Made by a program: the position numbers and the translations under genes
Part shown: positions 2,015-56,021 of the stretch, in pieces
Layout: each line of letters starts with the position of its first letter
How positions within the stretch are numbered: position 1 is the first letter of the stretch
The notes under the pieces: model-generated
Seen by the model: only the letters and a program-made list of their open reading frames with translations
Told to the model about the DNA's origin: nothing
Database searches by the model: none
Virus record (IMG/VR): IMGVR_UViG_3300018475_000011
Location: 24,000 to 87,999 of that record
Origin: a virus
Lineage: Duplodnaviria > Caudoviricetes
Length of the DNA stretch: 64,000 nucleotides
Reading direction: 5' to 3' (one strand)

Positions 2015-3781
2015 ATGGACTTATATCGTGTTTCAAAAGTATTGTCGGAAAACAAGCGGGGGAAGATGTTTCTTGTTTACGACTTATATGGAGATAAAAA
2101 AAGCCTTACTGTGCGTGGCAATTTGCCCGAAATTTACGACGGAATGATAATAGGGCTAGAAATATCCACTAACGCATCAAAAGGGGCTAAAAAGCCAATA
2201 TACGAAGTCGTAGACTATGCCGTGGAAGTGACCGCAAAGAATGAAACCATATTAAAGAATAAAGGCGTTGATGTGGAGCGATACAAGGAAATGCTCTTTA
2301 ATCATTTGCAAGCCAAAAAAGAAGGCGTAACATGGGAAGTGGCAAGCATAGAAGTCGATAAACTATATGATAATTTATGCTTTGCCGATGCTGATAAAAA
2401 GCATAAGGAAAAGAAAAATGAACCGAAAGCAGAAGAAAGATTGCGGGCAATATGCAAAGAGATTCTTACAAAAGCAAGGGGCTTAAAAAAAATAGAGTAC
2501 GAAGTAGATGAATTTATTGGTTATGTCGAAAGCATCGAAGAAAAAGGAGCTTATAACGCACTTTCTTCAACCGATAAGATAGAGCTGATAATGAGAGATG
2601 AATTTGGATTTGCTTATGGCAAAATATATGATGTCGAAATGACGGATAAAGAAAACTACGTCCGATGCAATATGGCAAAACGCAACAGATATATTTCGGA
2701 ATTATTAGAAGAAGATGAAATTGCATCATTTATAAACAAACTATCCGATAGTTTAATGGTGCAAGAGCAAATAGATGTATTGTGGTGCTTAAAAGACAAG
2801 AAGCCGTGCATCATTACGGGCGGTGCGGGTACGGGCAAAACAACCGTAGTGAAATCTATTATAGAATGTTATTCTAAATATTATGATAAAGACGAAATAT
2901 TATTAGTTGCCCCTACGGGAAAGGCAAGCGTGCGTTTAGAAAACAGTACAAAAATGCCAACAAGCACAATACATAAGGCATTGAGAAAAAGCGTAGAAGA
3001 AGAATACGCATATTATAACGGGAGCAACAAACTACCGCATAAATTGGCGATTGTAGACGAAAGTAGCATGATTGATACGGCTCTCATGTACGATTTATTG
3101 CGGGCGTTAAGTGACGATTGTAAAATAATATTTGTCGGCGACCATAATCAATTACGTCCCGTAGGATATGGAGAACCTTTTTACGATTTTATCAAAACAT
3201 TATATGTTTATGAATTAACACAAAATCATAGGCAATCCGAAGAAACAGATATATTGGCAAATGCAAACAATGTTTTGGCGAATATACCGCTTTTCAACGG
3301 TAGAAGCGTAAAGGTAGAGCATATTTCTAAAAACGCCATATTCGATATGGTGGAATGGGAAAGCAATGCTCAAATATTAACGCAATATAGGGAGCTGAAC
3401 GCTCAAATAAACAATTCACTTAAATTCGGACAATCTGATTTTAATGTGGGGGACAAAGTAATTCTTCTAAAAAATACGGATTCGTATTGTAATGGAGATA
3501 TAGGATATATTGTCAAAATAGAAAAGGGTAGATATTACATAGAGCTTGAAGATGTCGGGGTGTATAGGGACACGACAAAAATTGTGGTTGACAAAAAGAG
3601 CGATATGGAATTGGCTTATGCTATTACGGTGCATAAAATGCAAGGAAGCGAAGCGGAAAAAGTAATCGTTTTTTTGCGTCGTGGAAAGGTAAGCAAAAGT
3701 ATGTTATATACCGCAATCACAAGAGCAAGATGCGAATTGGAAATATATTATTATGATGAAGTGGGAGAAGGCGTTGCGTAA
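2015..3781 (+). CDS. recD2: RecD2-like SF1B helicase
   Basis: GGAGTGKT, VDESSM, GDHNQL, LTQNHRQ, YAITVHKMQGSE, LYTAITRAR. Confidence 0.9.
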   Translation: MDLYRVSKVLSENKRGKMFLVYDLYGDKKSLTVRGNLPEIYDGMIIGLEISTNASKGAKKPIYEVVDYAVEVTAKNETILKNKGVDVERYKEMLFNHLQAKKEGVTWEVASIEVDKLYDNLCFADADKKHKEKKNEPKAEERLRAICKEILTKARGLKKIEYEVDEFIGYVESIEEKGAYNALSSTDKIELIMRDEFGFAYGKIYDVEMTDKENYVRCNMAKRNRYISELLEEDEIASFINKLSDSLMVQEQIDVLWCLKDKKPCIITGGAGTGKTTVVKSIIECYSKYYDKDEILLVAPTGKASVRLENSTKMPTSTIHKALRKSVEEEYAYYNGSNKLPHKLAIVDESSMIDTALMYDLLRALSDDCKIIFVGDHNQLRPVGYGEPFYDFIKTLYVYELTQNHRQSEETDILANANNVLANIPLFNGRSVKVEHISKNAIFDMVEWESNAQILTQYRELNAQINNSLKFGQSDFNVGDKVILLKNTDSYCNGDIGYIVKIEKGRYYIELEDVGVYRDTTKIVVDKKSDMELAYAITVHKMQGSEAEKVIVFLRRGKVSKSMLYTAITRARCELEIYYYDEVGEGVA

Positions 3782-5504: not shown

Positions 5505-5547
5505 CAAAATATAGTAAAACACAACCAACCAAAAAGAATAAGGAGAA

Positions 5548-5877
5548 ATGATTATGGCAAACGGAAACAGAACTTACAACATTTGTACTAATTGGGGGCT
5601 TTATTGCTTCGATATGAAGGAAACAAACACGGGTGTTCGTCTTAATTGTGCAATGAACGGCAAGAAGAAGGACGACGGTACATACGAAAAAGGGTTGTCA
5701 ATGAGCGTTTTCTGCTCGTTTGAAACTTGCGACATTATCGAAGATGATTACAGTAATTGCTTCATTGATGTAGACGGTGGATTTACCATTTCGGAATATA
5801 TCGGAAACGATAATACGCCCCGCACATCTATTACGATTTTCGCCGATAAGGTGCGTAAGCACGAATGGAACAATTAG
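5548..5877 (+). CDS. ssb: single-stranded DNA-binding protein-like (OB fold), no acidic tail
   Basis: IDVDGGFTISEYIGNDNTPRTSITIFADKV resembles the SSB C-terminal strands. Confidence 0.6.
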   Translation: MIMANGNRTYNICTNWGLYCFDMKETNTGVRLNCAMNGKKKDDGTYEKGLSMSVFCSFETCDIIEDDYSNCFIDVDGGFTISEYIGNDNTPRTSITIFADKVRKHEWNN

Positions 5878-11112: not shown

Positions 11113-11179
11113 AAATATATGATAAAGAAAGATTTATCATCAACACAACCAATAAATATCGAATAAAGGAGATGTAATT

Positions 11180-12046
11180 ATGGCAACACAAACAAGTGCA
11201 AAAACCAACAGTAACGAAGCGGTAGAAGAAAAGAAAACCGCAAAGAAAACAGAAATCGCTAAGATGAATATTTTTCAGAAGATGCTTGCAATCACAACTG
11301 AATTGCAGACAGTAGCGAAGAACATGGAAGTCGGAACGGGCAACAACAAATATAAGGCTGTATCGGAGAGAGATATTCTTGATGCGGTTAAGCCTATCGA
11401 AGAAAAGTACGGCGTATATTCATATCCATTCGCAAGAGAAATTCTTGAAAGCAATTTGCTTGAAAGCGAAAGTGCATATAACGGACAAGTCACTAAAAAG
11501 ACTACGTTTATGACAAGAATTATGACCGTATATCGCTTTATCAATGTTGATAACCCGTCGGATTATATCGAAACAACAACATTTTCGGAAGGCATTGATG
11601 CACAAGACAAGGGGAGCGGTAAGGCAATGACTTATGGCGATAAATACGCTTTAATGAAAGCCTACAAAATCTCTACGGGCGACGACCCCGATGCAACCGC
11701 AAGCGTAGACGAAAATTACACCAACAGTAAGACTACATCAAGTGCGGGAGCAAGTAGGTGGAAAAATGCGAATGCCAACGCTAACGCTAATGCAAACGCA
11801 AACGCAAACGCAAACGCTAATGCAAACGCTAATGCAAACGCTAACGCTAATGCAAACGCTAATGCCAACGCTAATGCAAACGCCAATGCTAACGCCAACG
11901 CTAATGCAAACGCTAATGCAAACGCTAACGCTAATAACGGCACTAAATCCAATGCGGGAGTAAGTAGGTGGAAAAATGCCAATGCTAATGCGACACAAAA
12001 TCAGACATCAGAGCTTCCGAAGGCAAGTGGTTACAACGGCAAATAA
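11180..12046 (+). CDS. ERF-superfamily single-strand annealing protein with Asn-Ala repeat
   Basis: YKAVSERDILDAVKP..GIDAQDKGSGKAMTYGDKYALMKAYKISTGDDPD. Confidence 0.85.
   Translation: MATQTSAKTNSNEAVEEKKTAKKTEIAKMNIFQKMLAITTELQTVAKNMEVGTGNNKYKAVSERDILDAVKPIEEKYGVYSYPFAREILESNLLESESAYNGQVTKKTTFMTRIMTVYRFINVDNPSDYIETTTFSEGIDAQDKGSGKAMTYGDKYALMKAYKISTGDDPDATASVDENYTNSKTTSSAGASRWKNANANANANANANANANANANANANANANANANANANANANANANANANANANANANNGTKSNAGVSRWKNANANATQNQTSELPKASGYNGK
11765..11932 (+). repeat. coding hexamer tandem repeat (AAY GCN)x28
   Basis: 28 units counted; flanked by imperfect direct repeats encoding AG(A/V)SRWKNANA. Confidence 0.95.
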
Positions 12047-16187: not shown

Positions 16188-16240
16188 ATAATTACAGAGA
16201 ACAACAAACCAAATATACAATAACAAAGGAGATAACGCTT

Positions 16241-17206
16241 ATGTCATTCTTACAAACATTTAATCAGAACTTTGAAGGAATCCACAACCGCATCAATCAT
16301 ATTATGAGTACCGAAAACACATTCTCGGTAAATAGCGAAAACTATCGCACAAAGGATATTGCTAGAACAATCGGCAATATCAGCAATTATTCAGACTTTG
16401 GCTTATGCACATTGGGAAGAACAGTAAAGTTTCCTTCTCCATTCGTTTCGGAGCTTGCAGAAACCAACCCTATGCTTGCTAATACTGTGATTGCAGATAG
16501 AATTGATAATTACTTTGAACACGGCAAGGACACATTCTTTGCAAGAGAGTTTGAAGGCAAGATTTGCGGTATTGTAAGCAATAAGTATACATACTTTGAC
16601 GACAATCAAGTTGCTGATATCATTGCAGATAGCCCCTTGGCAAACAAGAAATACGCTCATGCAATGGTTACACCCGAAAGATTGCATCTTAGAGCAATCG
16701 ACGCAGATACCCCGTTTAGAGTAGACGGCGATGAAAGCGATTTGTTCTTTGCATACTTCATTGATAATTCTATGGTAGGACAGAGTTCTTTTAAGGTACA
16801 GCTCGGTATTTACCGCCTTGCTTGCAAAAACGGTCTTATCGTTCCCATGAAGGAATTTGTAATTTGTAAGCAAGTGCATCGTGGAAACAAGGATATCTCC
16901 GAACAGTTTAATGAGAGTATCGCATTTCTTGAAGAAAGAAAAGAGAGTATTCGTGAGATGATTTGCAATTTGGGTATTCAAAAGGCAAGCATCGAAGAGA
17001 TGAAGGAAGATTTTAAGAAAGACTACCTTGCAAAACAGCTCAATCTTTCCGCAAAGGAAGTTGGAAAGGTGCTTACTCTTTACACCGATACATACGGTGG
17101 AGAAACCAAATGGGCTTTGGTTCAAGCAATTACCGAATTTGCTAGAGATACAAAGAACATCGACAGAAGAGTATATCTCGAAAAGAAAGCCTTGAAGGTG
17201 GCATAA
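16241..17206 (+). CDS. DUF932-like protein
   Basis: NSMVGQSSFKVQLGIYRLACKNGL..HRG..TKWALVQAITE; AAGGAG SD before ATG 16241. Confidence 0.7.
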   Translation: MSFLQTFNQNFEGIHNRINHIMSTENTFSVNSENYRTKDIARTIGNISNYSDFGLCTLGRTVKFPSPFVSELAETNPMLANTVIADRIDNYFEHGKDTFFAREFEGKICGIVSNKYTYFDDNQVADIIADSPLANKKYAHAMVTPERLHLRAIDADTPFRVDGDESDLFFAYFIDNSMVGQSSFKVQLGIYRLACKNGLIVPMKEFVICKQVHRGNKDISEQFNESIAFLEERKESIREMICNLGIQKASIEEMKEDFKKDYLAKQLNLSAKEVGKVLTLYTDTYGGETKWALVQAITEFARDTKNIDRRVYLEKKALKVA

Positions 17207-23094: not shown

Positions 23095-23201
23095 TCATAA
23101 ATATAGGCAAATGTCTGTTCGATTTTGCTTGCAATCTGAATAGATTAGTGATATAGTTTCCTTAACACAACCAACTCTATTTTTAATATAAGAAAGGAAG
23201 T

Positions 23202-23549
23202 ATGCGTATGGGAAACTATTATGTAGGACAGACCGTATACAATTCGCTCAAAAAAGAAGATGAAGTTGTAGTTGGTGTGTCAGAAGAAATTATCAAGACT
23301 AGCAATGCAGACGGATTTGTAAGCGATTATGATATTGCCTATATTCTTCCTATGAGTTCAAAGGATATTGACAAAAAGTATCATAATATAAAATGTCATG
23401 TATGCAAGGAATTGGAAAAAGTTAAAGAAGTAAGTGGAGATTATCCATTGGTAATGTTTGAAGATATTAATGGAAATAGGGTAATGCAATATCCTTACTT
23501 CTGCTATTCATGCGGTGCAAAATTATTTGAAGAAGAGCCACTTGGATAA
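23202..23549 (+). CDS. hypothetical protein
   Basis: own promoter (TTGCAA-17-TATAGT) and ACACAACCAA leader; Cys pairs. Confidence 0.65.
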   Translation: MRMGNYYVGQTVYNSLKKEDEVVVGVSEEIIKTSNADGFVSDYDIAYILPMSSKDIDKKYHNIKCHVCKELEKVKEVSGDYPLVMFEDINGNRVMQYPYFCYSCGAKLFEEEPLG

Positions 23550-23954: not shown

Positions 23955-24035
23955 AGTGGTAAAAATAACCATAAGAGAATAAGTAGTAAAAGTAAAGTAG
24001 TAAAAGTAACCTATGTTTATTTAGTGGTAAAAGTA
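23955..24035 (+). repeat. four AGTRGTAAAA(G/A)TA direct repeats
   Basis: copies at 23955, 23982, 23996, 24023 abutting a promoter -35. Confidence 0.75.
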
Positions 24036-30512: not shown

Positions 30513-30559
30513 ATAATTAACAACCAACCAATAAAATCGAATAAAGGAGATATTAAATT

Positions 30560-30877
30560 ATGGAAGTATTATCATTAGTGTTAGGATTAACAATGAGTTT
30601 TTCAAAGGCGATTATCGTGGAATATTGCAGAATTAGTCGCCGTCTAAATGAATTTATCTGTATGGTTAATGCGGTGGTTAGCATGGCACTTCTTTTTTTG
30701 AACAGAACAATGGAAACAGACAGCTTTGTATGCGGTTTGCTATTTGCCGTTAGTTTCTTTAGCGTATCGGAGATTGTAACAAGCGTTGTAGAAGATGCCC
30801 GCCGTAGAGAAGCAAAGGAATTACGTCAACGAAAAGAACGTATGCAGATACAAAGAGAATACAGAAAGGCAAGCTAA
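30560..30877 (+). CDS. membrane protein
   Basis: three hydrophobic segments; leader complementary to the sRNA. Confidence 0.65.
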   Translation: MEVLSLVLGLTMSFSKAIIVEYCRISRRLNEFICMVNAVVSMALLFLNRTMETDSFVCGLLFAVSFFSVSEIVTSVVEDARRREAKELRQRKERMQIQREYRKAS

Positions 30878-35034: not shown

Positions 35035-36138
35035 ATGAGAAGAAATAGTAACTCAAACGATGTAGATTTAGCTTTGAAATGGGTAAAAGGATTGACCGAA
35101 GATATGGGGGCATTGGAAAAGCTCGTTTCCGTTCCTAGTCCCGAAGATATAAGAAAGCTCTTTTTGATAGATGCTTCTACAACGCTTGAAGAATCAGCAG
35201 AGTTGATGAAGAAACATAAAGAGTTTTATAAATTAATGTGCCAAGCAAGAGAATTTGACAAGTCTGCATATACGGAAACCGTTAATGATTTGGACGCAAT
35301 AAGTATGTTGCAAATATGGGCTAGAAATAAGCAGATATTTTCATTTGATGCGGATTTTCTTGCTGAATTGCTTAATACAGATACGCCAACATTTGAAAAG
35401 GATAGTTGGGATTACCTACCCTACAATCCGTTTTACGTTGATTTATCTGATAGCGAAGAGTTAAGTCAAAAAATAGGCAAGGGATTCTTTTTGTATATAG
35501 AAAAAACGGGAAACGATACGTTTATGCCCGAAATGCAAAACAGTTATTACGTTCATTTGTGCCGTGTAACTGATGAAATGTACTTTTGCGATATGTTTTC
35601 ACGCAAGAATACAAGCGGTACGGTGGAAATTAATAAAGACGCAACCGTAGTCGTTCCCACTATGGCAATGGATAAAAAACACGGCGAAATGTTTTCGATA
35701 GAAGATATTAAAACGGGCGAAGCTACATTGAGTAGCGGTTTATATGATTTGTTGGTTATGCAAATTCTTACCTATTTATCAAGCCTTGAACCCGATATTA
35801 AGGAAAACAGTATTACAAAAAATACATACAGAAAGCCGAAAACAGATTCCAAGCCAAAGAATAAGTTTTCGGAAGTGCAAAAATGGAATGTCGGAGAATC
35901 GTTTGGCGTTTCTTATAGGAAATGGGAAAAGGAACGCTCTGCGTCCCATGGCGGTCATGGTGGCGGTAGTGGAGCAAGCGGAGTTAAGAAGCGTCCACAT
36001 TCCCGTAAAGCCCATTGGTCGCATTATTGGTATGGAAGTGGCGACAACAAAGTGCGTCGCCCTAAGTGGATATCGGCAACCTTTGTTAATGCAAGTGATA
36101 CGGAAATGAAAGTAACAGTAAATACAGTTAGTAAATAA
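35035..36138 (+). CDS. hypothetical protein with basic His/Trp-rich C-terminus
   Basis: 367 aa; KRPHSRKAHWSHYWYG..WISATFV. Confidence 0.75.
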   Translation: MRRNSNSNDVDLALKWVKGLTEDMGALEKLVSVPSPEDIRKLFLIDASTTLEESAELMKKHKEFYKLMCQAREFDKSAYTETVNDLDAISMLQIWARNKQIFSFDADFLAELLNTDTPTFEKDSWDYLPYNPFYVDLSDSEELSQKIGKGFFLYIEKTGNDTFMPEMQNSYYVHLCRVTDEMYFCDMFSRKNTSGTVEINKDATVVVPTMAMDKKHGEMFSIEDIKTGEATLSSGLYDLLVMQILTYLSSLEPDIKENSITKNTYRKPKTDSKPKNKFSEVQKWNVGESFGVSYRKWEKERSASHGGHGGGSGASGVKKRPHSRKAHWSHYWYGSGDNKVRRPKWISATFVNASDTEMKVTVNTVSK

Positions 36139-38392: not shown

Positions 38393-38442
38393 ATAATTAA
38401 CAACCAACCAAATACAACTGAATAAAGGGAGATAACGGGAGC

Positions 38443-38610
38443 ATGAGTGAGTACAAGTATGATTGTATAATGAGTTTATGCGAAAAGGAATGGAACGCTA
38501 GATTGGGGGAATCTGACGGTCTGTGGAATACTCAAACAGTTCAGACAAAAAACAAATTCTTTGAGAAGATGTGTCGTGAATTAGAGAGTGAAGAAAGGTG
38601 GAGAGTGTAA
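38443..38610 (+). CDS. 55-aa hypothetical protein (below ORF-track cutoff)
   Basis: first ORF after promoter 8, GGGAG SD; MSEYKYDCIMSLCEKEW.. Confidence 0.5.
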   Translation: MSEYKYDCIMSLCEKEWNARLGESDGLWNTQTVQTKNKFFEKMCRELESEERWRV

Positions 38611-41138: not shown

Positions 41139-41339
41139 ATGGCAAATTCAAATCTTAACATGAGAATTACAGAAGAAACAAAGGATTGCATTAAAAAGTT
41201 TGCGTCCGACAGAAATATGAACGTAACAGAGTATGTATTGTTTGCGTGCTACACAACTGAATCAATGGCAGAAACAGTTAAGTCTATTGCAAGCGATGTT
41301 AGCGAACTAAAAAACATGATTAAGCAGATGCAGAAATAG
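41139..41339 (+). CDS. ribbon-helix-helix DNA-binding protein
   Basis: NLNMRITEETKDCIKKFASDRNMNVTEYV. Confidence 0.7.
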   Translation: MANSNLNMRITEETKDCIKKFASDRNMNVTEYVLFACYTTESMAETVKSIASDVSELKNMIKQMQK

Positions 41340-41345
41340 GGAAAA

Positions 41346-41377
41346 AGAAGAGCATATCAAGGGATATGCTCTTTTTT
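41346..41377 (+). terminator. intrinsic terminator
   Basis: GAGCATATC-aagg-GATATGCTC then T run. Confidence 0.85.
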
Positions 41378-41399: not shown

Positions 41400-41428
41400 T
41401 TGACAAATATAACATCGTATGATACTAT
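41400..41428 (+). promoter_or_regulatory. SigA-type promoter of the putative sRNA (no CGTTAC box)
   Basis: TTGACA-17-TACTAT with extended TG. Confidence 0.75.
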
Positions 41429-41434
41429 GAGCTT

Positions 41435-41532
41435 GTAAACGATGTAAGGTCGTTTAGTAATAAAGAGTTATCTCTTTATTCGATATTTGGTTGTGTTGAA
41501 AAGTCGTTGTGTCCCCCATAACGACTTTTTTC
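41435..41532 (+). ncRNA. putative trans-acting antisense small RNA
   Basis: promoter, two hairpins, single-stranded segment and terminator (AAAAGTCGTT..AACGACTTTTTT), no ORF; 41467-41499 complementary to several 5' leaders. Confidence 0.7.
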
Positions 41533-41725
41533 TTGTCTAAAATTGCATATACTCTCTTCTGCTATCGACACATATACTCTCTTCCACTCTTTCGTTGGCA
41601 CTCACAAACTATCATATAGTTTGAAGGGTGCTTTTAATTTGCGTTGAATATGTCAAAACATCATGTAGTGTTGTAAAAATGCAAACACTACAAGGGGTTA
41701 TAGTGTTTGCAAAATGCTAAACGTA

Positions 41726-41754: not shown

Positions 41755-41795
41755 ATAATTACAACCAAATACAATTTAATAAGGGGGACAATGCC

Positions 41796-42020
41796 ATGAA
41801 CGCATTTATAAAAAATCCGTATTACGAATCAAAAATACGGTCGGAAAAAGCAAATATTGCTCATTACAAAAACCAAATTAAGCATCTCGAAAATCAAATT
41901 GAGCATCTTAAAGAAAAAGGCAAACCCACAAGAAGCCTTGAAGATGCTATTAATACCCTAAACAGAAATATGGAACATTCCAACATTATGATTTCTCGGT
42001 ATCAGCGATTAAATATATAA
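41796..42020 (+). CDS. small coiled-coil protein
   Basis: GGGGGACA SD; heptad pattern. Confidence 0.6.
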   Translation: MNAFIKNPYYESKIRSEKANIAHYKNQIKHLENQIEHLKEKGKPTRSLEDAINTLNRNMEHSNIMISRYQRLNI

Positions 42021-51264: not shown

Positions 51265-51293
51265 ATTATAACAAAATTAAACAAAATAGTCAA
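51265..51293 (-). promoter_or_regulatory. SigA-type promoter
   Basis: TTGACT-17-TATAAT with extended TG. Confidence 0.75.
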
Positions 51294-52876: not shown

Positions 52877-54313
52877 CTATCTGTCTATATCACTCATTTT
52901 CTTTTTGGGCTTGGAAGTGTTCTGTTTGTCTTTTCCCATTTCTTCCTTTTCAAAGAATTTATCAAACTCTTTGTTGAACTCCTTAGAAAATGCGTCAGCT
53001 CGGCTAAATGCGGTTTCAAAAATCGTGTTTTTGCCGATACGGAACGCATCGGTTTGGATATTGTTCATAGTGTGGCTTATTTCTAATGCTAATTTTTCTT
53101 CACATTCTATTCCTATATGCTTACATACCATGTAGGCTGACATTGCAACTTCTAACTTGTGCATATCGCTATCGGACGGTATTCGGCTTTTAATACCCGT
53201 TATGATAGCGGGGTTTTCGGAAAACAATTTATCGGCGTAACCATGAACCGCTTGATATAATCTTTCTTGCTCGGATATATTTTTGTCGTCGGGAACAACA
53301 AAAGGGTAAGAAACGATATAACCGCCTTCATTAGTATTGAAGTTTATTTGATTCATTGCGGTTGAAATTTCATTGAAATTCTCTGCATTATCTTTAAGTG
53401 GCTTGTTTAACTTCAATAAATGTTCGATTTCTTCTCCTTTTTCATTTAAGGCGAATGTCTGTTTTATGTCGAATACGGGAGTATCAACAAATCCCGATAA
53501 TACTTGAACTTCTCCCTTATGAGCTATTTGGTCTAAGAGCTTATCTTTTTCATCATCAGTTAAGTGGTTACGCTCAACATATTTATTTACTGAATCTTCA
53601 TTAGAAAGAATTGTAAAGACGGGAGCAAATATATGAATAGCACTCTCTCCCTTACTTACTTGCCTATCAAGAGCTTTCCATGCTTTATAACCCTTAACCG
53701 CTTCGGCATCGGGGGCTTGGGCGTAAACAAGACCAATGTTATTGCAACTGTATCGCTCAAAATTATCCTTTATATCTAAAAACTTTTGATAGTCTGCTCC
53801 TTCAATAGTTGCTTTAACAGCATCACTAGCTTTTTGTGACAGAACTTCGGTAGACTTTGAAACATCTACATTGCCTTGCGATATTACGGGGATTCCGTAT
53901 TTATCTTCAATAGCCCCCTTTATTGTACCGTCGTAAAAATCCATTCCGCAAGCAATATCAAACGGTATATGAACGACAATACTGTTTGAAATATCATATA
54001 AATTACTCATGTATTTATTGGCGGTTTCTTTTATATGTTGCTCAAAGCGGGCGGGGTCGTATTCTTCGATATAATCGCCAATGTATTCGGAATAATCCAT
54101 GATATCTCCGTTAGCAAGCATTTCTTCACGCTCTGCCAATTCTTCTTGTTGATTAGCAAGGTACATTTCCTTAACATCATCTTTTGCCATAGATAAGGCT
54201 TGGGTGTAATTAATATCTGCGGGAAAATCAAATTTTACGCCCTTGCAAGTAAAAGGCACTCCTTCTTCTCTAAATTTCTTTATTTGATTATCTGTATAAC
54301 CGCTAAAATCCAT
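52877..54313 (-). CDS. ArdC-like N-terminal ssDNA-binding domain protein with degenerate metallopeptidase region
   Basis: YSCNNIGLVYAQ..KGYKAWK..RQVSKGESAIHIFAP..VFDIKQT; AVHGYAD in place of HExxH; start 54313 after AAGGAG. Confidence 0.75.
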   Translation of the reverse strand: MDFSGYTDNQIKKFREEGVPFTCKGVKFDFPADINYTQALSMAKDDVKEMYLANQQEELAEREEMLANGDIMDYSEYIGDYIEEYDPARFEQHIKETANKYMSNLYDISNSIVVHIPFDIACGMDFYDGTIKGAIEDKYGIPVISQGNVDVSKSTEVLSQKASDAVKATIEGADYQKFLDIKDNFERYSCNNIGLVYAQAPDAEAVKGYKAWKALDRQVSKGESAIHIFAPVFTILSNEDSVNKYVERNHLTDDEKDKLLDQIAHKGEVQVLSGFVDTPVFDIKQTFALNEKGEEIEHLLKLNKPLKDNAENFNEISTAMNQINFNTNEGGYIVSYPFVVPDDKNISEQERLYQAVHGYADKLFSENPAIITGIKSRIPSDSDMHKLEVAMSAYMVCKHIGIECEEKLALEISHTMNNIQTDAFRIGKNTIFETAFSRADAFSKEFNKEFDKFFEKEEMGKDKQNTSKPKKKMSDIDR

Positions 54314-54326
54314 AACAAACTCCTTC

Positions 54327-56021
54327 CTAATCTCTTTCGATATGCTTTTTTGATTTTTCTTTTTCATCGGGCAATTTAGAAGCAACAAGATATCCCGACA
54401 TTATCTTTTCCGCATTACGCATTATTGATTTCCATTCATCTTCCGACTTTGCAAAAACTTTTTTCATTTCTCTGCACATAAAACGGGAATCATCTCTTGT
54501 GAAAGCTCCAATTTCAACGGGCATATATTCACATATTGTATCATTGTGATTAACTACGGAAAAAGTAATGCTGTCACGTTTGATATTGTAATCCATATAT
54601 ATTTTTTTAGCGTCAATATGGCACATATCTAAATTATCATATAATACACGCCCCCATGATTCTTTGCGTAGGTCGAATTTGGAAAGGTCAAGCTCTGCTC
54701 TAACACCTTCGGGGATTCTAATAAGTTCGTCCATGCCCTTTGACATAGTATTGATTAAACTCTTCCTATCAACACTAAACGTCATGTCTTTTGTGTGGGC
54801 GGTCATTTCAAGTAAATATTTGATAGTACATTGGCTTTGGTCGTAAATAACGTATTCATCATTTTTTAGTCCCGTTCTGTGTTTGTCGGCATATACCGAT
54901 AAACAACCACTCGGCAAACTGTTCTTATTGAAGGAGCGGGACAATGATGAAACGGGTTTATACGTTTCTCCTAAAGCAACGGAATAAACCGCCATGTACC
55001 CACTATCACGTTGTCCGTCGTTCCATACCGCACCTTTTACGTCCATATAATTGAGTGATTTACGACTATCGGGAGCAAAGTAAAGTCCGTTGCCAAACAT
55101 CTTTCCCGTAATTTTTGCATCGGGATTAAGCGAAAGACCGCTCTTCATTATAGACAACCAATTCTCAACCTTGCTACCATGGTAAAATAACCGACAATCT
55201 CTATGGGATAAATTATGTGCTTTTTTGAAATCTTCATAAGCAGAGCGTGTTTTTTCATTCTCAACCGCAAATCCTTTAATATATCTGCTTTCAACTTCTC
55301 TACCGTCGTAATCTCTTCCTAAATGAGATGTGATTTCATCTTCTTCTTTATAAGTAACGGGACGAACAGACAAACCGTATGCTTCCAATAATGTTTTATC
55401 TTGGTCTACTGATGCCGTAATCTGCGGAGCAATTTGACCCTTGACATTATCAATCATGTCTTGTTCTCTTTTTATAATTTTTGTAAAGTCAAGCGATGAT
55501 TTAGCGGTATAATCGTCCACATTTTTCATTTTACGGGGAATGTCGGTAAATATTTCCACTAATTTTTCGTTGAAACGCCACAATGCCACATTAGGCATAT
55601 TATTAACCATGTCAATCAATTCATTAAGGTCGTTTTGAGCTTCATCAACCATTTTCTGTGTAATATCAGATGATTGAATCGTATAATTTGCCTTCATAAA
55701 TTCTCTTGCTGATTTGGCAAGCATCTCAATAAGAGCATTTACTTCTTCGTGTTCTATTTTTTTGTAATCCAAATCAGTATTGTGATTCGTAACAACTTGG
55801 CTTGAATGTAATGCGGTTACGTCGTTATACCCCTTGTTTTCCTTTGAGCGTAATAATTCATAAAAATCTTTTTCTCCCCTTGAGTAATGGTGGAACGATG
55901 CCCTACCGCCAACTCTTCCGAAATTAACATCAATACTGTTATCATCATTTTGGGTAATTTCATAGTATTTATTACTATTGGCAAGCGGGTCAACATATAC
56001 TAAATACGCATAATTCTTCAT
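54327..56021 (-). CDS. poly(ADP-ribose) polymerase-like protein (WGR + helical regulatory + H-Y-E catalytic domain)
   Basis: NKYY..FGRVG..K.NKGY; LFYHGS..GKMFGNGLYFA..KSLNY..NDEYVIYD. Confidence 0.9.
   Translation of the reverse strand: MKNYAYLVYVDPLANSNKYYEITQNDDNSIDVNFGRVGGRASFHHYSRGEKDFYELLRSKENKGYNDVTALHSSQVVTNHNTDLDYKKIEHEEVNALIEMLAKSAREFMKANYTIQSSDITQKMVDEAQNDLNELIDMVNNMPNVALWRFNEKLVEIFTDIPRKMKNVDDYTAKSSLDFTKIIKREQDMIDNVKGQIAPQITASVDQDKTLLEAYGLSVRPVTYKEEDEITSHLGRDYDGREVESRYIKGFAVENEKTRSAYEDFKKAHNLSHRDCRLFYHGSKVENWLSIMKSGLSLNPDAKITGKMFGNGLYFAPDSRKSLNYMDVKGAVWNDGQRDSGYMAVYSVALGETYKPVSSLSRSFNKNSLPSGCLSVYADKHRTGLKNDEYVIYDQSQCTIKYLLEMTAHTKDMTFSVDRKSLINTMSKGMDELIRIPEGVRAELDLSKFDLRKESWGRVLYDNLDMCHIDAKKIYMDYNIKRDSITFSVVNHNDTICEYMPVEIGAFTRDDSRFMCREMKKVFAKSEDEWKSIMRNAEKIMSGYLVASKLPDEKEKSKKHIERD

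Follow-up and report, generated by a model that had tools for sequence, protein, structure and literature searches.

The DNA analysed here (the window) is a stretch of 64,000 nucleotides corresponding to positions 24,000 to 87,999 of a circular IMG/VR record of 87,999 bp, referred to as G000. The record is filed as a virus, whereas its gene content is that of a conjugative plasmid of the Firmicutes type, with a Rep3 initiator, a topoisomerase, ParA, a Mob_Pre relaxase, a VirD4-type coupling protein and a CD1110-family VirB4. The nearest PLSDB proteins to VirD4 are only ~30-36% identical to it. The DHH relatives include one Coprococcus protein, and the plasmid is probably carried by gut bacteria.

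On the plus strand of this plasmid, positions 41435-41532 hold a predicted sRNA of 98 nt, which contains no SD-led ORF and belongs to no Rfam family. Directly upstream of it, both here and in the sister lineage considered below, lies a NikA-like RHH gene (41139-41339, +), whose product falls below the Pfam cut-off and is also found on 17 ENA contigs, each of ~88 kb. A terminator at 41348-41373 separates this gene from the sRNA, which is a stand-alone unit flanked by two terminators. The promoter that a preliminary description of this DNA had placed at 41400-41428 (+) is present as a sigma70-type element, TTGACA-17-TG-TACTAT, and is conserved in the related contigs L195, L196 and L206. Since it lacks the CGTTAC operator carried by ten other promoters of the plasmid, it is probably constitutive.

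The two hairpins proposed in the same description, at 41436-41456 and 41459-41480 (both +), fold as described, and the intrinsic terminator is also present (about 41499-41532, +, or 41498-41530 by a second delimitation). Hairpin 1 carries in or at its loop a TAAGGT motif that is kept in all homologs, and the 3' arm of hairpin 2 (41472-41480) forms the anti-SD strand. The following seed region (41481-41498, +) had been taken to be unpaired; instead, a third, weak and G-U-rich hairpin is predicted, with TTGGTT (41487-41492) in its 6-nt loop. Three compensatory pairs, one in hairpin 1 and two in the terminator of the sister plasmid, are found over four sequences and carry modest weight because the sequences are few. 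The hairpin-1 loop TGTAAGGT (41443-41450) also occurs as a tag opening many promoter-proximal leaders in the distant relatives G002 and G008; G002 143079(-) begins with the TGTAAGGT tag paired to its own complement, followed by a pyrimidine tract.

In a scan of the plasmid, 41435-41532 was the only short promoter-terminator unit of less than 115 nt. Its sequence signals, conserved in the homologs, are those of an independent short non-coding unit, as in the trans-acting class of sRNAs. A search of the window against Rfam gave no match at the gathering score, and 41435-41532 returned nothing at E<=10 beyond noise. The minus strand opposite the sRNA holds no gene, no promoter and no usable ORF. 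The idea that the locus is the remnant of a minus-strand leader was rejected for lack of a promoter or usable ORF. On its 3' side, the sRNA is followed by a conserved non-coding stretch (41545-41715), retained in L195 and L196, that contains repeated ACTCTCTTC, an AAACTAT/ATAGTTT palindrome and TAGTGT inverted repeats. This stretch could be an oriT or a protein-binding site, for which no support was found; an oriT was searched for and not located.

The plasmid also carries a layer of promoters that are likely to form a repressor regulon. Ten near-consensus promoters bear CGTTAC at a fixed position in the spacer (16159, 18473, 23604, 30484, 31717, 34123, 36194, 38364 and 41726 on the plus strand, and 63657 on the minus strand). 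Sister plasmids have variants of the spacer motif, GGTAC/GATAC in plasmid B, TGCATTAC in G006 and TGTACAC in G002. By analogy with Reg576, the RHH protein is a candidate repressor acting at the CGTTAC promoters (PMC6294495). Control would comprise two layers, the sRNA and the CGTTAC operator, to which the RHH protein probably binds. Elsewhere in the window, long leaders (138-164 nt) precede minus-strand operons at 51293(-) and 61088(-), each with a promoter, a shared GTCCGT element and a terminator-like end; counterparts are present in L191, L218, G002 and G008, and these leaders are possible attenuators.

The potential partners of the sRNA were ranked among 123 predicted plasmid leaders by net energy, using the full folded RNA and including the costs of opening. 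The eight best are the leaders that share a common motif, at -24.6 to -12 kcal/mol against a median of -4.2. The best partner is the erf leader with its SD (11140-11173; gene 11180-12046, encoding an ERF-family annealing protein) at -24.6 kcal/mol, and the earlier observation that 11140-11168 and the reverse complement of 41467-41499 agree in two 13-nt blocks, with a 3-nt bulge between them, was confirmed. There follow the leaders of 5554-5877 (5519-5545; -19.0), of the 55-aa gene 38443-38610 (38400-38432; -18.5), whose ortholog is targeted in both sister lineages, of 30560-30877 (30520-30550; -17.7), of an HTH regulator outside the window (gene G000 2717-2989; target as a whole at L003:2686-2989; -17.3), of the DUF932 gene 16241-17206 (16201-16233; -16.6) and of the RecD2-like helicase gene 2015-3781 (1987-2012; -13.3). 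The weak leader of 41796-42020 (41761-41788) comes last at -12.0, with pairing in the model confined to the seed. All of the sites within the window lie on the plus strand. Related leaders are present where the preliminary description had listed them, but its place at 41796 is seed-only in the model and that before 23202-23549 (23165-23200, +; seed match only, -8.2) is marginal.

The identities of the targets fit a role in DNA handling, through ERF, the RecD2-like helicase and DUF932. The gene 5554-5877, named ssb in the preliminary description, stands as a partner and is possibly SSB-like: it has no Pfam, PHROG or NCBIfam match, and the sole lead, from the Atlas, is a value of 0.92 to a cluster in which 22% of the members are SSBs. 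The HTH gene matches phrog_1373 (E 6e-10) and is located close to where the transfer region begins; the first gene behind promoter 2289 lies on one side of it and topB, relaxase and virB4 on the other. The sRNA site of the HTH gene falls within the coding sequence of the upstream gene. No known toxin family was found among the targets in domain and family searches, and an ArdC-like anti-restriction gene is not a target in the energy ranking. The leader word is likewise absent from all three of an AcrVA2-like gene (35035-36138), one with an ArdC N-terminal domain (52877-54313) and a WGR-PARP gene (54327-56021).

Pairing with the leaders exceeds chance by several measures. ACAACCA occurs in 7 of the 123 leaders, against 0.33 expected. 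For the best seven leaders the mean duplex energy is -30.3 kcal/mol, compared with -19.0 +/- 1.4 for dinucleotide shuffles of the pairing region; when the anti-SD half was held fixed and the 3' part alone shuffled, the value was -23.7 +/- 1.2 kcal/mol. In both cases 0/150 shuffles reached the observed energy; a comparison with shuffled controls had been proposed as a check in the preliminary description. Nine other short units from related plasmids, serving as rough controls, gave no comparably separated group of leaders. In the strong targets the seed word precedes the SD by 9-14 nt, measured from its final copy if it is present twice, and it usually falls among the first 25 nt of the mRNA as predicted. 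It is the distance to the SD that is held, not that to the promoter, and the motif follows several promoter types. It also occurs inside operons, before gene 12909 of plasmid B and, in G000, within the coding sequence that precedes the HTH gene. The complementarity to initiation regions of these unlinked genes is imperfect, above chance and conserved. On the sequence evidence, 41435-41532 is very probably a genuine pairing sRNA.

Close homologs of the sRNA are present behind the same RHH gene in L195, L196 and L197. A diverged, syntenic homolog is encoded after the RHH ortholog of sister plasmid B (L192 and L206), where neighbouring proteins are 43-60% identical. Promoter, TAAGGT motif, TTGGTTG seed and terminator are all retained in this homolog; its middle sequence differs. 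The B homolog carries a perfect anti-SD, which a different helix is predicted to lock, and its seed is predicted to be single-stranded; in L195 the seed is predicted to be partly paired, with a loop of only 3 nt.

Covariation between sRNA and leaders in related elements, suggested as a check in the preliminary description, was found in plasmid B, and rests on two independent lineages only, A (that of the window) and B. The exact 13-mer CCAAATAAAAACA, which is complementary to the B RNA, is present in three leaders of an 18-kb B contig and is not found in the 88 kb of G000. The expected number of this 13-mer in 18 kb is 0.001 (P about 2e-10, with no correction for how the segment was chosen). 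Conversely, the A-type 11-mer ATCGAATAAAG is present in two A leaders and in the A sRNA and absent from B. For the orthologous 55-aa gene (38443; L195 8407; L206 9609), the leader changes in step with the sRNA. Mean duplex energies are -30.3 for the A RNA on A leaders, -24.1 for B on A, -27.6 for B on B and -17.4 for A on B. Specificity is one-sided, because A leaders remain good partners for the B RNA and its perfect anti-SD (-15 to -21 net); on one A2 leader the B RNA even outdoes the A2 RNA. The leader of the 41796 ortholog in L191 pairs better than the window's own.

More distant searches did not extend the family. A covariance model (R1) found no homolog in G001, G002 and G006-G008, whose DHH or ERF proteins are 45-70% identical, or in L217/L218, and blastn with the sRNA against PLSDB and phages gave no match. 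Pattern scans for the sRNA in IMG/VR and GTDB returned only chance-level matches in unrelated taxa (the one inspected was coding-like), and a leader-pattern scan of IMG/VR returned 117 single matches. RHH scans of metagenome and viral contigs, together with the distant RHHs P0009 and P0010, revealed no further sRNA. When G002, G006 and G008 were searched de novo for functional analogs, nothing equally selective emerged, and G006 168389(+) and G002 143079(-) are weak leads. Other short units bounded by a promoter and a terminator, in which an anti-SD-like pyrimidine tract is exposed, were seen at G002 25271(-), G008 106965(-) and G006 168389(+), of which the first two are homologous and have a co-varying 5' hairpin. 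Several operator promoters of G006 are followed by copies of a structured leader or RNA of ~200 nt (103118, 115317, 120164, 136849 and 145920, +), and two of these copies end in a terminator.

A mechanism can be proposed on this basis. The sRNA would be transcribed as an independent unit of 98 nt from the promoter and terminator present in the sequence. Its loop seed, UUGGUU(G), would nucleate on the complementary (C/A)AACCAA word before the SD of a target; pairing would then spread towards the SD, displace hairpin 2, cover the SD and block 30S loading. Hairpin 2 would keep the anti-SD locked until a seed-matched leader displaces it, preventing it from binding SDs at large. This extended pairing is modelled for erf, 5554, 38443, 30560, the DUF932 gene and the HTH gene; recD2 is modelled with a different pairing, and 41796 and 23202 with the seed only. 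The earlier proposal that the seed docks on ACAACCAA and that pairing opens hairpin 2 over the SD is supported by the energy ranking, the shuffles and the covariation between sRNA and leaders. It is likely that the sRNA represses translation by pairing over the SD.

An alternative to repression is that only the seed pairs, at the extreme 5' end of the mRNAs, and stabilises or activates them while hairpin 2 remains closed and the SD free. There is precedent in the stabilisation of ska by FasX bound at its 5' end (PMC7509114). It would suit the position of the seed word in most targets, within about 1-25 nt of the predicted transcription start, the stability of hairpin 2 in the isolated RNA as modelled and the seed-only pairing predicted for 41796 and 23202. 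It is nonetheless improbable, as complementarity and covariation span the middle of the RNA and the SD, the anti-SD of the B homolog is perfect, and two targets are internal to operons and so are not 5' ends. An equally small chance is given to the idea that no pairing function exists, the leaders being a copied promoter-leader cassette and the sRNA locus an inverted copy whose similarity is maintained by gene conversion or duplication. A promoter cassette is indeed used ten times over on the plasmid, and concerted evolution of repeats is possible; however, the leader word is found on only four of the ten CGTTAC promoters, and the operator is absent from five of the nine motif leaders. Moreover, the supposed inverted copy has a conserved promoter and terminator of its own and compensatory pairs, its minus strand offers neither a promoter nor a usable ORF, and sRNA and leaders have remained antisense to each other in two lineages whose sequences differ.

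Repression by pairing over the SD might, with the same molecular mechanism, serve a standing function, either in the control of conjugation and DNA metabolism through the HTH regulator or as an antitoxin-like guard against harmful small proteins. The strong site of the HTH gene, placed before topB, relaxase and virB4, would suit the former, and the several small proteins without known function among the targets the latter. Against this, the strongest partners encode proteins that handle DNA (ERF, RecD2-like, SSB-like and DUF932) and the domain and family searches showed no known toxin family among the targets, which makes a standing role unlikely. Overall, the best explanation, to which a probability of about 0.7 is assigned, is that a trans-acting antisense sRNA of the plasmid represses about eight of its dispersed genes. 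As the sRNA matches and co-evolves with eight leaders of its own plasmid, one RNA would probably keep these genes off except briefly after entry. The timing is the least certain step, drawn by analogy: established cells would keep the targets low, and a new recipient would express them until the RNA has built up, with the separate operator/RHH layer acting in parallel. That the sRNA is specifically an establishment timer, released after transfer, is accordingly put at somewhat less than an even chance. Slightly more tentative is the fuller proposal of an RNA-only switch for zygotic induction, in which the sRNA governs, as master repressor of translation, a scattered regulon for establishment and recombination, above the RHH/operator circuit, with a code that co-evolves between sister plasmids.

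To our knowledge, the brief expression of establishment genes after transfer is only partly understood, and the routes described act on DNA, through ssDNA promoters and protein repressors. If correct, the present proposal would add an RNA route by which such genes are timed, besides ssDNA promoters, protein repressors and EGeRS1. The regulon flags uncharacterised genes, and the two natural sets of sRNA and leaders are ready-made allele pairs. The sRNA resembles a natural toehold-type translational repressor and could serve gene control in Firmicutes.

The sequence at 41435-41532 represents an undescribed RNA family. No plasmid sRNA repressing a dispersed regulon of its own plasmid was found in the literature, the coverage of which was incomplete, so that this absence is not proof of novelty. 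FinP, other cis-antisense plasmid RNAs and type I antitoxins use a loop seed and occlude the SD; they mostly lie opposite or beside a single target, to which they have near-perfect complementarity. Unlike these, the window sRNA is predicted to pair imperfectly, in trans and with multiple targets. A type I antitoxin was rejected since the strongest targets are distant genes for proteins of 100-590 aa and the adjacent gene is the weakest, and a FinP-type cis-antisense RNA since the opposite strand has no gene or promoter.

Dispersed small operons under a shared upstream signal are familiar from the IncN CUP/ArdK system, which acts on DNA. For the pLS20 family, an RHH repressor (EGeRS2, Reg576) and a long cis element, EGeRS1, whose mechanism is not known, are described (PMC8708921, PMC6294495). 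The window resembles the Reg576/EGeRS regulons in its dispersed small operons, one shared upstream signal and an RHH gene inside the regulon, and its CGTTAC promoters and RHH gene look similar to the Reg576/EGeRS2 layer. When that layer was compared directly, ten CGTTAC promoters and the NikA-like gene were found, with an operator that differs from TTATCCC. Whereas those systems act on DNA, the feature of the window is a 30-nt mRNA word that would be read by an RNA in trans; PMC8708921 and PMC6294495 describe no RNA of this kind. EGeRS1, in pLS20 clades I, III and IV, is a structured upstream repeat of 400-600 bp without a strong sigmaA promoter (PMC8708921); membership was rejected because the shared part here is ~30 nt and follows near-consensus promoters. 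Antisense control of establishment genes on pLS20-type plasmids, cited in the preliminary description, is not borne out by PMC8708921 and PMC6294495, in which 'antisense' appears only in a reference title.

RocRp of the Legionella conjugative plasmid pLPL copies a host sRNA and silences several host genes for DNA uptake and recombination (10.1101/623074). Like RocRp, the window sRNA belongs to a conjugative element and has several targets at once; unlike it, the window sRNA matches and co-varies with leaders of its own plasmid. No sequence relation to RocRp was found, the window sRNA showed no similarity in Rfam or the plasmid database, and the evidence favours targets on the plasmid.

Close parallels may be drawn with the C4 RNA and with the CI RNA of satellite phage P4, which pair with short sites in leaders of their own element. 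Their specificity shifts by co-variation of RNA and site, and their absence at entry creates a time delay. Each is processed from the one operon that it controls. C4, an antisense RNA of phages P1 and P7, controls ant (PMC8201110). The Rfam models of C4 and P4 CI gave no match at 41435-41532, and membership of this class was rejected because the sRNA is a stand-alone unit with targets up to 60 kb away and is not in the leader of a repressed operon. Like C4 and CI, the window sRNA is encoded by a mobile element and has co-varying sites in that element's own leaders; unlike them, it forms a unit of its own, and its predicted targets, about eight in number, are scattered across more than 60 kb of a conjugative plasmid.
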